Shown: positions 48,946 through 54,951 of the stretch, piece after piece
Numbering within the stretch: position 1 is the stretch's first letter
Layout of the letters: each line of letters opens with the position of its first letter
Source of the DNA: Candidatus Heimdallarchaeota archaeon
GTDB lineage: Archaea; Asgardarchaeota; Heimdallarchaeia; Heimdallarchaeales; Heimdallarchaeaceae
Assembly: GCA_018238545.1 (NCBI GenBank)
Contig: JABCTC010000003.1
Coordinates: forward strand, 32,001 to 96,000
Length of the DNA: 64,000 nt
Reading direction: 5' to 3'
The notes under the pieces: generated by a model
What the model saw: only the letters and a program-made list of their open reading frames with translations
Database searches by the model: none
What the model was told of the DNA's origin: nothing
Program-made: the position numbers and the translations under genes

Positions 48946-51900
48946 ATGACTGCAATCGAATTAACTAAAAATGCTTTAATAGTTTTAGAAAAACGCTATC
49001 TGTTACGCGATGAAAACAAGAAACCGTTGGAAACACCAGAAGGGTTGTTTAAACGCGTAGCGGATTTCATAGGAGAAACAGATGAAGAAAAAGAGAAATT
49101 CTTTGAATTGATGGCCTCACTAAAGTTCCTTCCAAATTCTCCTACGTTAATGAACGCAGGCACTAAGCTAGGAATGTTGTCGGCTTGTTTTGTCCTTCCA
49201 GTAGAAGATGATATGACATCGATATTTGATGCAGTGAAGCATGCAGCTTTAATTCAACAAGGGGGAGGCGGGACAGGTTTTAGCTTCAGCAAAATTAGAC
49301 CAACAAATGATGTGGTTAAGACAACTGGAGGAGTAGCTTGTTTCCCTTCATCTGTTCGCATTCATACAGATAAAGGATTAATGAAAATAGACGATATAAT
49401 GAAATTTAATGGCTCAATCAAGGCTCTTACTCATAAAGGTTTTCGCAAAATAACTAACAAATATGAAAATGGAATAGCTACAATCTATGAAGTAGAAGTT
49501 TCGAATGGTTATGTTTTGAGAACAACTTCTAATCATAAATATTCAACGATCAAACAAGGTAATATAATCTTAAAACCTTTATCTGAACTTAAAGAAGATG
49601 ATCAACTACTTCTTCTTGCAAATGAAGTGGAAGAAAACAGTCCTAGTGTCATAGCATTAACAACTAAAATATCTGAAAATGAAGATTATTCAATCGAACT
49701 AGATGAAGATTTAGCCTATTTGATAGGTCTAACCTACGCTGATGGAAATATTGTAAATGATGGTCGTCATTATTCTATCAATATTTCTTTAAATATAAAT
49801 CAGAACGATGTAATTGACAAAATTAGAAATATTTCTAAAAAAAGATTTGATTATGATATCAAGGAATACAAGAGGGAAAAATTTAACAGAGTAGAATTAA
49901 GAATTCATGGAAAAAAATATGTGAAACTTTTAGAAGAGAACCAACTTCTAAAAGAGAAGTGTGAGAAAATAAAAATTCCTGAGAAAATATTTCAGAGCCC
50001 ATTTAAAGTTGTTTGCTCATTTATTGCTGGCTATTTTGATGGAGACGGTAATGTTGGAACGGATGGTAGAATAAGTATCAAAACAGTTTCTAAGCAAATG
50101 AGTGATGATTTTGCATTAATAGTTACAAGATTGGGTGTTTTGACTACTAGTTTTCGGGATGAATCTAATTTTGTAACTAGAAATAACAAGGTGTCATACA
50201 GACTATCCATTCCTACAGCAATATTCAAAGAAAGGTTTGTACGATACATCTCTAAATATTCCATGAAACTTCGAGACTATGAATTAAAAAAAGGATCGAC
50301 AAATAGAAAGTTTTCATATCCATTCAACATTCTTCAGAAAATAAGTAATCCAAAAACAAGAGCTAAAATCTCAAAAACCATAATTCCATATAATAATAAA
50401 GTTACAACTAGAAAAGCTCTTAGAAGATTGTTAGATGAAAACGAGATCTCTAATCTTTCTCAAAAAGAGTTACTATATATAGAAAAACTAGACAAATTAT
50501 ATCCTGTTAAGATAAAAAGAATTACAGAAATAGGAAAAGAGGCAGTTTATAATCTAGAGGTTCATGAGGTAAATCGTCTTTCTGCAAATGGTTTTTATGT
50601 TTCCAATTCGGGACCAATTTCTTTTATGGAAGTTTTCAATGCAGCAACAAATACAATAAAACAAGGGGGGTGTGTTGCTACAGATAGTTTGATCCGTACA
50701 GATACAGGTTCCATACCAATTGGAGAGCTCCTTAACTGTCCACCTTTAAGTGATAATCCTACTAAATCCCTAGTATATGATGGCGAAGATTTTAATCATG
50801 CATATATTTCCATGGACAATAGCATCGCTGAAGTAATAAAAATAACCACAGATATAGGTATAGAAATAAAACCAACTTACAACCATCTTATTGCATCCAT
50901 AAACGAGGAAGGTGATTTTGTTTGGAAGGAAGCAGAAAATCTAAAGGTGGGTGATTGGTTAGTTATCTCATTAGATGGGCACTGTGGGAGCGATGCTTTT
51001 CTACCTTCCATCAAAAAACAGCATCATAATGCTAATCCGATAGTTATTCCAGAAAAAATAACACCTGAACTTGGAGAGATTTTAGGTTTATACATGGCAG
51101 ATGGTTGTATCAGTACGCAAGGAAGAATAGTTTTCAGTTTAGGCAATAAGGATCCTGACTTAATTCAAAGGATTAAAGATCTTATGATAAAAACATTTAA
51201 CCTTCCTGTGGGCATGGTTGATGATAAGAACACTTATTCTGATTTATTCTTTTATTCTAAAGATTTATGCAAATACTTTGAGAAAATGAACTGGAAGAAA
51301 ACCTCTTCAGCTGATGCTTTTGTTCCACAAATCATATTTCAATCCTCTATTTCTGTTGCTAAAAGCTTCATTAGAGGTTTGTTTTCTGGCGATGGGGATG
51401 TACATGTTGATGGTTATCCACGTTATCACTCAATTTCAGGGACTTTAGTGAAAAAACTTCAGCAATTATTGCTTGGTCTGGGAGTTGTTTCCTCAATTTC
51501 GTTAAATAAAAACCGTTTAGGAAGTTTTGGAGACAAACCAATTTATTGTCTCTCCATTGTTCCTGAGAGGAGCTTGAAAATCTTCAAGGATGAGATAGGT
51601 TTCGCAGTTAGTAGAAAAAATAATCTCCTAAGAGAAAGGTTTCCTCAGAAAGCATTTGAATATGTGGACTATATTCCACATCAAGGTTCTAAATTAAAAC
51701 AAAAGTATAACTATGTGGGAGCTGGAACTAATAAGGGTATAACTAAACGAGGGGCAGATAAGGTATTCTATAGAGCGATCTATCATTACATCTCAAAATC
51801 CCCTAATTCATACAGAAATATTACAAGAAAGAGACTTCTCATATTATTTGAAAAATTCCCCTTTTTGAGGGAAGATTCACATTTCAAAGAAATTTCGAAT

Positions 51901-54900
51901 CCAAGATACTATTATTCCCAAGTTCGTTCTATTGAAAAAGAAGATTGCTATACTATGGATATCGAAGTATCAGGTTCAAATAAATTTGTGGCAAATGGTG
52001 TATTAGTTCATAACCGTCGTCGTGGAGCGAACATGGGCATTCTCAGAGTTGATCATCCTGATATTCTCGAATTTATTTCCTGCAAAGAAGATCAAACTAA
52101 ATTAACTAATTTCAACATCTCTATTGCAATAACAGATGTTTTCATGAAAGCAGTAGATGAGAACAGTGATTATGATTTAATAAATCCTAGAAATAAAGAA
52201 ATTGTCGGCAAACTAGATGCAAGAGGAGTTTTTGATAAAATAGTAGAAATGTCCTGGAAAAATGGAGAGCCAGGGATGGTTTTCATCGATAGAATAAACA
52301 GAGACAATCCAACACCAGAAATAGGAGAAATTGAGAGCACGAATCCTTGTGTGACAGGTGATACTCTTATTTCAACTGAAAAAGGATTAATGAGGATGGA
52401 GAAGCTAGTAGAGCAATATGGAGAAGGGGGCATAGCAATTGCTACAGACAATCGTGTTCCTGTTCAAGTTCCCAATGGTGATGGAACTGTTAGTCTGATG
52501 GAAGTTAAAGAAAAAGGTGTAACTCTAAGACCAATTACAAGAGCTTTTTCTACAGGTATAAAAGACGTTTATAAACTTGTTACAAAAGCAGGCTACGAGC
52601 TTAAAGCTACAGCTGATCATAAAATGGTAACCAATGAAGGTTGGGTTGAACTCAAGAATCTTGATCCAGCCAAACATCAGATCTTGCTACAGTCGGGAAA
52701 AGGATCATTTAATTCTTCGTATGATTTACCCTTTGAAGTACAAAACAATTTTATTGGTAAAAATGGTAGGTCTTATTCCTTTAACTTTCCAACAAAATGG
52801 TCTAAAGAACTAGGTCAAACATTAGGTTGGCTTATAGGTGATGGATGGTTACGGGCAGGAGACAAAAATTGTCGTGTTGGGTTTACTTTTGGTGAAAGAG
52901 ATAAGAAAATTATGTGGCATCTCAAACCCTTCATTAACAAGTGGTATGGTTCAGAAATAGAGGAAATTAAAAGAAAGAATAACGTTTATCATCTTTCTTA
53001 CCATTCGAAATATTTTGTAGAATTTTTCAAAAAATTAGGCGTTAAACCAGTCAAAGCAGGTGAAAAGGTTGTTCCAGAAACAATATTTACTGCTCCTGAA
53101 GAAGCAGTAATTGGTTTCTTACAAGGATTATTCAGTGCAGATGGAACAGTAAATTATAGAGAAGATCATTCATCTTATGTCAGATTGACATCCAAATCAA
53201 GATTGCTCTTGAGTGAAGTGCAGATATTATTAGCTAATTTTGGAATTAAATCCAGAATCTATAACAGAAGTAGAAAAGCAAGGCAAGTATTCAATTATAT
53301 CTCAAAATCAGGAGAAAAAAGAAACTACATCAGCGATGGTATCTGTTTTGAACTAGAGATTTCAAGAAAAAGTGTTTTACGCTTCTTATCAGAGATAGGA
53401 TTTCTTCAAGGATTACATAAAAAGAAAATAGTTAAGTTTTCTCATAAAAATTTCAGAGAAGATATCTATCTTGAGAAAATCAAATCAATCAAAAAAGTAG
53501 GTAAAGAAAGAGTATATGATTTAACCGAACCAAAAACCTTAACCTTCATTACAGGCGCTCTAGTGACCGTTGATTGCGGCGAACAACCACTTTTGTCCTA
53601 CGAATCTTGCAATTTAGGTTCTATCAATCTTCTTAAGCACGTCAAAGATTCTGCTCTTGATTGGTCTCTTTTAGAGGATTCCATTCGTTTAGCTGTTCGT
53701 TTTCTTGACAATGTTATTGACAGGAATCAATACATTCTTCCTGAAATTGAACACATGACTAAAACCAACCGCAAGATCGGTCTTGGCATCATGGGCTTTG
53801 CTGATGTTTTGGTCTCTCTTGGCATTTCTTATAATTCTAAAAAAGCTCTAGATTTAGCAAATAAAATTATGTCTTTCCTTCAAGAAAAAGCAAGAGATGA
53901 ATCATCCAAACTGGGTAAAGAACGTGGTAATTTTCCTAATTTTGAGAAGAGTATTTACAAGGATAATTATGAATACATGAGAAACGCTACAACAACTACA
54001 ATTGCCCCAACTGGGACTATATCCCTTATAGCTGGATGCTCCAGTGGAATAGAACCTTATTACGCAATAGCTTTTACTCGCAATGTCCTAGATGGCAAGA
54101 AATTGTTTGAAGCTAATCCGCTTTTTGAAGAACAATTAAAAGCAAAAAATATTTACTCTGAGGAACTTCTAGAAAAAGTTTCAAGTACAAACTCAATCCA
54201 AGAATTAGAAGAAATACCAAAGAAAATACGACAGCTGTTTGTAACTACTCACGATATAACTCCTGCAGATCATATCGAAATGCAAGCAGTCTTTCAAGAC
54301 TATGTTGACAATGCCGTCTCAAAAACTATCAATTTCTCTACTACAGCAACTAAAGAAGATATAGCTGAATCCTTTTTACTTGCCTATAAGAAGGGTTGTA
54401 AAGGAATAACAGTCTACCGAGATGGTTCGAGAAAATATCAAGTATTATCAACAAAGAAAACTGAAGCAAAATCAAAGTTGGAAGATCAAATTAGGCACAT
54501 AGAAAAACTTGAACCTCGAGAAAGACCTGAGATAACTATTGGTCAAACTCACAAGATAAGAGCAGGTTGTGGTAATCTCTATGTTACGGTTAATCAAGAT
54601 GATGAAGGGGTCTGTGAGGTTTTTGTGCAAGTTGGTAAAAGTGGTGGGTGTATAGCAAGTCAAAGTGAAGCGGTAGGTCGGTTGATTTCCTTATCCCTTA
54701 GATCTGGGGTAAAAGTTGAATCTGTAGTAGATCACCTCGCTGGTATAAGGTGCCCCAGCCCTAACTTCTATCAAGGTAAAACAGTCTTGTCTTGCGCTGA
54801 TGGTATATCTCAAGTTTTAGCAAATTACATTAATGGTGATCACGTTGTTAAGCATAACGGACTAATCGCTTGTCCTGACTGTGGTGGGATGTTAGACTTC

Positions 54901-54951
54901 GCCGAGGGGTGCTATACTTGCAGACAATGTGGTTTCAGTAAGTGTGATTAG
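48946..54951 (+). CDS. nrdJ: Class II (adenosylcobalamin) ribonucleotide reductase with three inteins and C-terminal TSCPD/Zn-ribbon
   Basis: FLPNSPTLMNAG, LSACFV, GGGTGFSFS, RRGANMG, NP/CGEQ, ESCNLGS, TIAPTGT, GCKGITVYRDGSR, CPDCG...EGCYTC..CG.SKC. Confidence 0.96.
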   Translation: MTAIELTKNALIVLEKRYLLRDENKKPLETPEGLFKRVADFIGETDEEKEKFFELMASLKFLPNSPTLMNAGTKLGMLSACFVLPVEDDMTSIFDAVKHAALIQQGGGGTGFSFSKIRPTNDVVKTTGGVACFPSSVRIHTDKGLMKIDDIMKFNGSIKALTHKGFRKITNKYENGIATIYEVEVSNGYVLRTTSNHKYSTIKQGNIILKPLSELKEDDQLLLLANEVEENSPSVIALTTKISENEDYSIELDEDLAYLIGLTYADGNIVNDGRHYSINISLNINQNDVIDKIRNISKKRFDYDIKEYKREKFNRVELRIHGKKYVKLLEENQLLKEKCEKIKIPEKIFQSPFKVVCSFIAGYFDGDGNVGTDGRISIKTVSKQMSDDFALIVTRLGVLTTSFRDESNFVTRNNKVSYRLSIPTAIFKERFVRYISKYSMKLRDYELKKGSTNRKFSYPFNILQKISNPKTRAKISKTIIPYNNKVTTRKALRRLLDENEISNLSQKELLYIEKLDKLYPVKIKRITEIGKEAVYNLEVHEVNRLSANGFYVSNSGPISFMEVFNAATNTIKQGGCVATDSLIRTDTGSIPIGELLNCPPLSDNPTKSLVYDGEDFNHAYISMDNSIAEVIKITTDIGIEIKPTYNHLIASINEEGDFVWKEAENLKVGDWLVISLDGHCGSDAFLPSIKKQHHNANPIVIPEKITPELGEILGLYMADGCISTQGRIVFSLGNKDPDLIQRIKDLMIKTFNLPVGMVDDKNTYSDLFFYSKDLCKYFEKMNWKKTSSADAFVPQIIFQSSISVAKSFIRGLFSGDGDVHVDGYPRYHSISGTLVKKLQQLLLGLGVVSSISLNKNRLGSFGDKPIYCLSIVPERSLKIFKDEIGFAVSRKNNLLRERFPQKAFEYVDYIPHQGSKLKQKYNYVGAGTNKGITKRGADKVFYRAIYHYISKSPNSYRNITRKRLLILFEKFPFLREDSHFKEISNPRYYYSQVRSIEKEDCYTMDIEVSGSNKFVANGVLVHNRRRGANMGILRVDHPDILEFISCKEDQTKLTNFNISIAITDVFMKAVDENSDYDLINPRNKEIVGKLDARGVFDKIVEMSWKNGEPGMVFIDRINRDNPTPEIGEIESTNPCVTGDTLISTEKGLMRMEKLVEQYGEGGIAIATDNRVPVQVPNGDGTVSLMEVKEKGVTLRPITRAFSTGIKDVYKLVTKAGYELKATADHKMVTNEGWVELKNLDPAKHQILLQSGKGSFNSSYDLPFEVQNNFIGKNGRSYSFNFPTKWSKELGQTLGWLIGDGWLRAGDKNCRVGFTFGERDKKIMWHLKPFINKWYGSEIEEIKRKNNVYHLSYHSKYFVEFFKKLGVKPVKAGEKVVPETIFTAPEEAVIGFLQGLFSADGTVNYREDHSSYVRLTSKSRLLLSEVQILLANFGIKSRIYNRSRKARQVFNYISKSGEKRNYISDGICFELEISRKSVLRFLSEIGFLQGLHKKKIVKFSHKNFREDIYLEKIKSIKKVGKERVYDLTEPKTLTFITGALVTVDCGEQPLLSYESCNLGSINLLKHVKDSALDWSLLEDSIRLAVRFLDNVIDRNQYILPEIEHMTKTNRKIGLGIMGFADVLVSLGISYNSKKALDLANKIMSFLQEKARDESSKLGKERGNFPNFEKSIYKDNYEYMRNATTTTIAPTGTISLIAGCSSGIEPYYAIAFTRNVLDGKKLFEANPLFEEQLKAKNIYSEELLEKVSSTNSIQELEEIPKKIRQLFVTTHDITPADHIEMQAVFQDYVDNAVSKTINFSTTATKEDIAESFLLAYKKGCKGITVYRDGSRKYQVLSTKKTEAKSKLEDQIRHIEKLEPRERPEITIGQTHKIRAGCGNLYVTVNQDDEGVCEVFVQVGKSGGCIASQSEAVGRLISLSLRSGVKVESVVDHLAGIRCPSPNFYQGKTVLSCADGISQVLANYINGDHVVKHNGLIACPDCGGMLDFAEGCYTCRQCGFSKCD
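49339..50607 (+). mobile_element. Intein 1 (423 aa, LAGLIDADG endonuclease) in NrdJ, GGVA/C...SN/S
   Basis: CFPSSVRI start, TSNH block B, LIGLTYADG and FIAGYFDGDG, VYNLEV...ANGFYVSN end. Confidence 0.92.
50671..52014 (+). mobile_element. Intein 2 (448 aa, LAGLIDADG) in NrdJ, QGG/C...HN/R
   Basis: CVATDSLI start, TYNH, LGLYMADG and FIRGLFSGDG, TMDIEV...FVANGVLVHN end. Confidence 0.9.
52348..53574 (+). mobile_element. Intein 3 (409 aa, LAGLIDADG) at the catalytic NP/CGE site, ending in Asp
   Basis: CVTGDTLI start, TADH, LGWLIGDG and FLQGLFSADG, VYDLTEP...LVTVD/CGEQ end. Confidence 0.92.

Follow-up and report, generated by a model that had tools for sequence, protein, structure and literature searches.

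An archaeal intein lineage that lacks a +1 side-chain nucleophile interrupts the specificity loop of a class II ribonucleotide reductase

How can an intein mature its host protein when the residue that follows it offers no side-chain nucleophile? The question is raised by a 64,000-nucleotide stretch of the genome of a Candidatus Heimdallarchaeota archaeon (contig JABCTC010000003.1, positions 32,001 to 96,000; hereafter the window), which carries a gene for a predicted class II, B12-dependent ribonucleotide reductase (RNR), NrdJ, interrupted by three inteins. In canonical splicing the side chain of a Cys, Ser or Thr at the +1 position, directly after the intein, forms a branched intermediate, and every described intein class needs one of these three residues there (PMC4031507). 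The second intein of the window NrdJ (intein 2) is followed by Arg. An original prediction made from the letters of the window had noted this Arg and proposed that the intein either splices non-canonically or is cleaved out to leave an RNR that is split yet functional; both remain the leading readings. We find that intein 2 appears, from its own sequence and that of its homologues, to be a true, selectively maintained LAGLIDADG intein from an old archaeal lineage without a +1 side-chain nucleophile. Going beyond the original prediction, this is a trait of the whole lineage, not an oddity of a single locus. In the full-text literature, subscription journals not covered, we found no description of an intein without a +1 nucleophile in RNR or in Asgard archaea, and such a lineage would be what is new here.

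Intein 2 begins with a Cys codon (TGT, 50671-50673), ends with GTT CAT AAC (Val-His-Asn, 52006-52014; CAT AAC, 52009-52014) and runs directly into CGT CGT CGT GGA GCG AAC ATG GGC (RRRGANMG) from position 52015, giving the junctions KQGG/CVATD...VLVHN/RRRGANMG (slashes mark intein junctions here and below). The VLVHN end and the three CGT codons were thus exact in the original prediction, as to both coordinates and codons. Residues R206-R207-R208-G-A of Thermotoga maritima NrdJ (PDB 1xje) align one-to-one with the RRRGA that follows the intein, and intein-free alleles read ...KQGG-RRRGANMG... at three loci of the same genus and ...KQGG-KRRGANMG... at one locus from a sister genus of the same family. 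Because this alignment and these alleles fix the junction, the boundaries appear unambiguous, with the intein running exactly from Cys to Asn and Arg at +1, and removing it would give the normal QGG-RRRGANM sequence, as had been proposed. Alternative boundaries were rejected, since the junction is fixed uniquely and Cys, Ser and Thr are absent within about 20 residues downstream.

The rest of the element has the anatomy of an intein: an in-frame insert whose removal restores the host sequence, with blocks A, B, F and G and a HINT plus LAGLIDADG fold. The block A residues Cys1, Thr10 and Gly13 are present, and both LAGLIDADG motifs retain their acidic residues. On the whole window protein, the Pfam family Intein_splicing scores 141 bits and LAGLIDADG_3 (PF14528) also matches, with no Hint_2 or PT-HINT match in the same Pfam scan. 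An AlphaFold (AF2) model of intein 2, with a mean predicted local distance difference test score (pLDDT) of 65.8, matched TliVMA, PhoVMA, PI-PkoII, PI-PfuI and PI-SceI in Foldseek. The best matches by fold and sequence, TliVMA (7qss), PhoVMA (7qst), PI-PkoII (2cw7) and PI-PfuI (1dq3; Foldseek E 5e-22 to 9e-13), sit in other host proteins and at other sites and are 13-20% identical to intein 2; all four are known to have a canonical +1 nucleophile. A sequence search of the PDB found no close solved relative, the best phmmer match being at 1e-10.

We then asked how the +1 residue behaves in other genomes. With intein 2 as the query against 60 related genomes, full-length orthologues were found in 8 (53-76% identity, several genera, two families). 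G002 also has an N-terminal fragment where a contig ends, and in the copy of G029 the endonuclease is shortened. Wherever a copy includes the C-terminal junction, which is so in nine, it reads HN/RRRGANMG, except for HN/KRRGANMG in G015, and the +1 codon in 13 other assemblies (the eight relatives and five named metagenome-assembled genomes (MAGs)) is CGT, CGC, CGG, AAA or AAG. A contig scan gave at least five orthologues, all from MAGs among the matches listed, with no cultured host among them. Arg or Lys at +1 is a lineage trait, its codons changing synonymously while the amino acid is conserved.

The same holds over a far wider set of homologues. The best 120 matches of a word-indexed protein search all carry the intein at KQGG/ (120/120) with Cys1 (120/120) and end in His-Asn (119/119), and their +1 residue is Lys in 92, Arg in 15, Ile in 5, Met in 1 and Thr in 6, the six Thr cases being the most distant. 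An exhaustive representative search gave 7397 matches at E<=1e-3 and, added to the word-indexed set, brought the number of regular inteins at the site to 176. The tabulation of +1 residues at QGG-site inteins that the original prediction had suggested as a check could thus be made: 124 of the 176 have Lys (100), Arg (17), Ile (5), Val (1) or Met (1), and 52 have Thr (33) or Ser (19). Cys1 and the C-terminal Asn are present in 176/176, His-Asn in every junction printed, and Gly invariably stands at -1. The 124 nucleophile-less inteins are free of indels at both junctions, and excision always restores the loop length QGG-x-RRGA. By source name, the hosts include Heimdallarchaeaceae, Hodarchaeota, Promethearchaeota, Odinarchaeia, Micrarchaeota, Aenigmarchaeota and Bathyarchaeia, as well as Methanoperedens, Methanomassiliicoccales and a 'Methanobacteriota' MAG. 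Judged by how its closest matches are named, the source of the window most likely belongs to the Heimdallarchaeaceae.

To place these inteins relative to one another, a tree was built from intein residues only (IQ-TREE quick search, LG+G4; five site-shifted inteins added to the 123 sequences left after dereplication at 85% identity; root not established). A single clade, with an SH-aLRT support of 99, takes in every nucleophile-less intein except one and leaves the Thr and Ser inteins outside; its 72 rows comprise K50, R14, I5, M1, V1 and one further sequence, P0128. Because branches within the clade are long and its hosts span phyla (Asgard, DPANN, Bathyarchaeia and methanogen-related archaea), the lineage appears to be old and to have moved horizontally. 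Four splicing-domain positions set it apart, namely Arg9, Gly103, Leu445 and Val446; canonical relatives have S, F, N or A at position 9, V or I at 445, and S or T at 446 in 46/51. Block F position 4, the Asp430 equivalent, is Asp or Glu in the clade (D90/E10). The nucleophile-less intein outside the clade, P0192 (VVVHN/KRRGAQMG, +1 Lys), pairs with P0200 (FTVHN/TRRGAQMG, +1 Thr) and is possibly a second, independent loss of the nucleophile.

P0128, a metagenomic NrdJ, is nested within the clade with its intein one residue upstream (KQG/C...LVHN/SFRRGAMM) and Ser at +1, and looks like a case of intein 'sliding' or of repair by which a nucleophile was regained. Related inteins also occur three residues upstream (P0169, P0204, P0212 and P0258; IK/C...HN/SGG...), with a canonical +1 Ser. 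With several neighbouring insertion sites, loop 2 of RNR, in which all of these lie, is a hot spot for inteins.

Substitution patterns show that intein 2 is under purifying selection: the ratio of non-synonymous to synonymous divergence (dN/dS) is 0.05-0.28 where dS is unsaturated, in the HINT and endonuclease parts alike (dN 0.11 and dS 0.90, for example, between copies L009 and L010). The extein segment after intein 2 is 56-79% identical among relatives and the identity of the intein tracks slightly lower, a pattern that fits long co-residence. The proposal that the element is still mobile is plausible, given its intact endonuclease motifs, an endonuclease dN/dS of about 0.1-0.2 and a patchy distribution within the genus. 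In the shortened copy, L013, from a closed genome (G029:C1:3044418-3048392), about 67 aa of the endonuclease region have been lost in frame and Cys1 and HN/RRR are kept, so that here the endonuclease decays while the junction residues stay. These genomes of the Heimdall group are intein-rich: in the source genome (G000) the intein-2 query also matches 8 places, and relatives have as many as 10, the frames measuring 700-2700 aa.

How does intein 2 compare with known systems? Class 2 (Mja KlbA) and class 3 (WCT; mycobacteriophage Bethlehem DnaB) inteins are likewise lineage-wide departures in mechanism, each apparently of single origin (PMC4031507). These lack the position-1 nucleophile and keep the one at +1, whereas intein 2 is the reverse: residue 1 is Cys, there is no +1 Cys, no WCT triplet is present and block F position 4 is Asp430. 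Canonical class 1 inteins at the same loop-2 site (P0126, P0130 and P0157; KQGG/C...[VI][ST]HN/[TS]RRGA) are full-length homologues of intein 2 at 26-40% identity and share with it Cys1, Thr10, Thr69/His72, Thr428, Asp430, His-Asn and both LAGLIDADG motifs. They differ in having Thr or Ser at +1, the Cys, Ser or Thr of class 1 that the Arg of intein 2 does not supply, where the clade of intein 2 has K, R, I, V or M, and at the four positions given above. At the junctions, intein 2 is instead like the type A bacterial intein-like (BIL) domains, with a HINT domain, an N-terminal Cys, a C-terminal His-Asn and no +1 nucleophile. To our knowledge, BIL domains are bacterial, have no homing endonuclease and reside in variable, non-essential proteins; the literature on type A reportedly includes Amitai 2003. 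Unlike them, intein 2 is archaeal, has an endonuclease, occupies a conserved site in a catalytic loop of what seems to be the only RNR, and has true inteins as its homologues. By descent and anatomy it would therefore count as a true intein that resembles a type A BIL domain in its splice-junction chemistry.

Type A BIL domains, with Cys1, His-Asn and no +1 nucleophile, splice by a proposed aminolysis (PMC4031507, citing Dassa 2004 and Aranko 2013), and we give an even chance to NrdJ being matured at the protein level by a similar route. We infer three steps. An N-to-S acyl shift at Cys1 would produce a thioester on the preceding Gly; cyclisation of Asn448 would then break the chain at the C-terminal junction, leaving Arg+1 with a free alpha-amino group; and this amine would attack the thioester to give a normal Gly-Arg peptide bond without a branched intermediate. 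The proximity needed for the attack would be supplied by the already folded RNR halves together with the intein active site. Since the +1 residue varies chemically across the site and, in the close relatives of intein 2, is the same residue (R or K) as in the intein-free alleles, no side chain is likely to act as the nucleophile, and the alpha-amine alone is common to all. As R, I, V and M occur at +1 too, the Lys epsilon-amine, or any other side chain, was rejected as a general nucleophile. Aminolysis is favoured because the invariant residues are those needed for its steps, +1 is free and -1 is always Gly, which is the least hindered thioester. Removal at the RNA level was rejected by inference, as Cys1 and Asn are invariant, junction codons vary synonymously and dN/dS is far below 1. 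A broader proposal would rank the lineage among true inteins as a fourth class by mechanism: mobile, endonuclease-bearing, found widely in archaea and ligating efficiently by alpha-amine attack on the Cys1 thioester. It is more tentative and falls a little short of an even chance.

Several points weigh against aminolysis. In type A BIL domains, cleavage products exceed the spliced product (PMC4031507), and a sole RNR could ill afford a comparable dominance of cleavage. The AlphaFold model, of only moderate quality, puts the junction residues below 50 in pLDDT, too uncertain a basis for judging active-site geometry. The regain of a +1 Ser in P0128 may point to a cost of going without the nucleophile. 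The interrupted gene need not be active in every host, since two unrelated hosts of the clade possess a second RNR.

The principal rival is cleavage alone, in which thioester hydrolysis and Asn cyclisation would release the intein and leave two RNR pieces that remain associated non-covalently and work as a nicked enzyme. It would need exactly the conserved residues Cys1, Thr69/His72 and His-Asn, cleavage is the dominant outcome in BIL domains without a +1 nucleophile (PMC4031507), and the break would come in a loop at the surface of a protein able to fold beforehand. The position of that loop speaks on the other side. Intein 2 lies inside loop 2, the flexible link between the specificity-effector site and the active site; the Gln of KQGG corresponds to T. 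maritima Gln203 and Escherichia coli Gln294, the +1 Arg to R206 and E. coli Val297, and the next Arg to R207 and E. coli Arg298. In the E. coli enzyme Arg298 contacts the substrate beta-phosphate as a 'latch', its replacement by Ala leaves the enzyme nearly inactive, and the loop-2 backbone accounts for most contacts with the effector and substrate bases (PMC4728125). In intein-free RNRs the residue at +1 varies, with V, R, K, T, S and C all occurring. Given an insertion between the equivalents of Gln203 and Arg207, a backbone that reads the bases and the near-inactivity of Arg298Ala, an intact loop 2 is probably needed for activity. A nick would part these two residues in the loop that connects effector to substrate and would place charged termini in loop 2, and the lack of any junction indel in the 124 inteins fits a need for exact loop length; neither the parting of the residues nor the lack of indels is decisive. 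We regard cleavage alone as unlikely, though still to be reckoned with.

Another ligation route might run through a branched intermediate on a distal Cys, Ser or Thr of the folded C-extein, or through a ligase or transpeptidase distinct from the intein. It would account for maturation being efficient despite the missing +1 side chain; nothing speaks directly in its favour. Within the C-extein, about 20 residues separate the junction from the next Ser, Thr or Cys, and that residue is not conserved. No ligase-like helper was found among the genes flanking nrdJ, which encode a T2SSE-type ATPase, a DUF7266 protein, an unassigned open reading frame (ORF) and a DUF354 protein. The clade also occurs in very different archaeal phyla, for which a shared helper is unlikely. 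Such a route seems improbable to us.

Slightly less probable again is that NrdJ keeps the intein for good as a large loop-2 insert, or that the gene is inactive and deoxynucleotides come from elsewhere. Here the identity of the gene and the presence of other RNRs matter. The precursor ORF appears by its family matches to encode a class II B12-dependent NrdJ: it scores 1048 bits against the NCBIfam model for B12-dependent RNR (NF006417, cut-off 961) and 658 bits against TIGR02504, matches Ribonuc_red_lgN (PF00317), Ribonuc_red_lgC (PF02867, the RNR barrel) and TSCPD (PF12637) in Pfam, and has its catalytic Cys in the context STNP/.../CGEQ, interrupted by the third intein. It is the only PF02867 match in the source genome (91.8% complete), which has no NrdD by PF13597 or TIGR02487, and no second RNR was found with PF02867 and PF13597 in five relatives (G024, G026, G029, G052 and G058). 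As far as this can be tested, the description of the enzyme as essential in the original prediction is borne out. MAGs are about 90% complete, which makes a missed RNR possible for the source genome; G026 and G029, in turn, are closed single-contig genomes with an RNR of this kind only. The two clade hosts that do have a second RNR are a Micrarchaeota MAG, with an intein-free RNR adjoining the intein-bearing gene, and a Hodarchaeota MAG, with an NrdD. That exteins and intein are both under purifying selection argues against an inactive gene. The invariance of Cys1 and the C-terminal Asn, with His-Asn at every printed junction, would be pointless without chemistry, and a 448-aa domain left in loop 2 would stand in the way between effector and substrate.

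In the Hodarchaeota MAG, the NrdD match falls in five pieces inside one 2466-aa open frame (G062:C55:3636-10220), which probably holds several inteins of its own.

A sequencing or assembly error that hides a true TGT or AGT codon at +1 has next to no probability: CGT is one transition from TGT, but the non-nucleophilic +1 codons of the 13 other assemblies, with their synonymous variation, and the 124 homologues rule it out even without reads. A Cys, Ser or Thr codon at 52015, which the original prediction had named as the result that would overturn it, was accordingly not found; CGT stands there, and the +1 residues of relatives are non-nucleophilic. Taken with the conservation across the lineage, this suggests that a way of maturing RNR outside textbook splicing probably exists in these archaea.

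The other two inteins of the gene, listed with the features of intein 2 in Table 1, depart from a C-terminal His-Asn. Intein 1 ends in Ser-Asn, with a penultimate Ser instead of His, and the FYVSN/SGP junction is found in close relatives as well. Intein 3 ends in Val-Asp, and its homologues at the site end in HN, RN, RQ, HQ, LD, VD, AN or SN; C-terminal Asp and Gln are known intein variants.

Table 1. Features of the interrupted nrdJ gene, in positions of the window.
Feature	Position	Strand	Description
nrdJ precursor ORF	48946-54951	+	2001 aa; frame open throughout; three LAGLIDADG inteins; exteins total 721 aa
Intein 1	49339-50607	+	423 aa; LAGLIDADG; GGVA/C...FYVSN/SGPISF; +1 Ser; penultimate Ser
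Extein piece ending in loop-2 K-Q-G-G	50608-50670	+	21 aa; Gln is T. maritima Gln203
Intein 2	50671-52014	+	448 aa; HINT splicing domain and LAGLIDADG homing endonuclease; Cys1 to His447-Asn448
Block B of intein 2, T-x-x-H	50875-50886	+	Thr69 and His72; kept in nucleophile-less and canonical clades alike
LAGLIDADG motif 1 of intein 2	51082-51108	+	LGLYMADGC; Asp144
LAGLIDADG motif 2 of intein 2	51376-51402	+	GLFSGDGDV; Asp241
Blocks F and G of intein 2	51949-52014	+	Thr428, Asp430, then ANGVLVHN
CGT CGT CGT	52015-52023	+	Arg(+1)-Arg-Arg; +1 Arg is T. maritima R206, next Arg is R207
Intein 3	52348-53574	+	409 aa; LAGLIDADG; STNP/C...VTVD/CGEQ; ends in Asp, directly before the catalytic Cys

Because splicing requires Cys, Ser or Thr at +1, a 'scar' residue is left behind and the uses of inteins in protein engineering are restricted. 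If inteins of this lineage splice efficiently with K, R, I, V or M at that position, the splicing rule would have to be revised, since the +1 requirement would not be universal, and an evolutionary link between true inteins and BIL domains would emerge. Such splicing would further account for the invasion of alleles by inteins without a change in a host residue, and would make these elements natural traceless ligation catalysts and a template for ligation tools. If the outcome is instead a nicked two-piece enzyme, the allosteric specificity loop of RNR would tolerate a break in its backbone. Either outcome concerns the sole route to DNA precursors found in several Asgard archaea.

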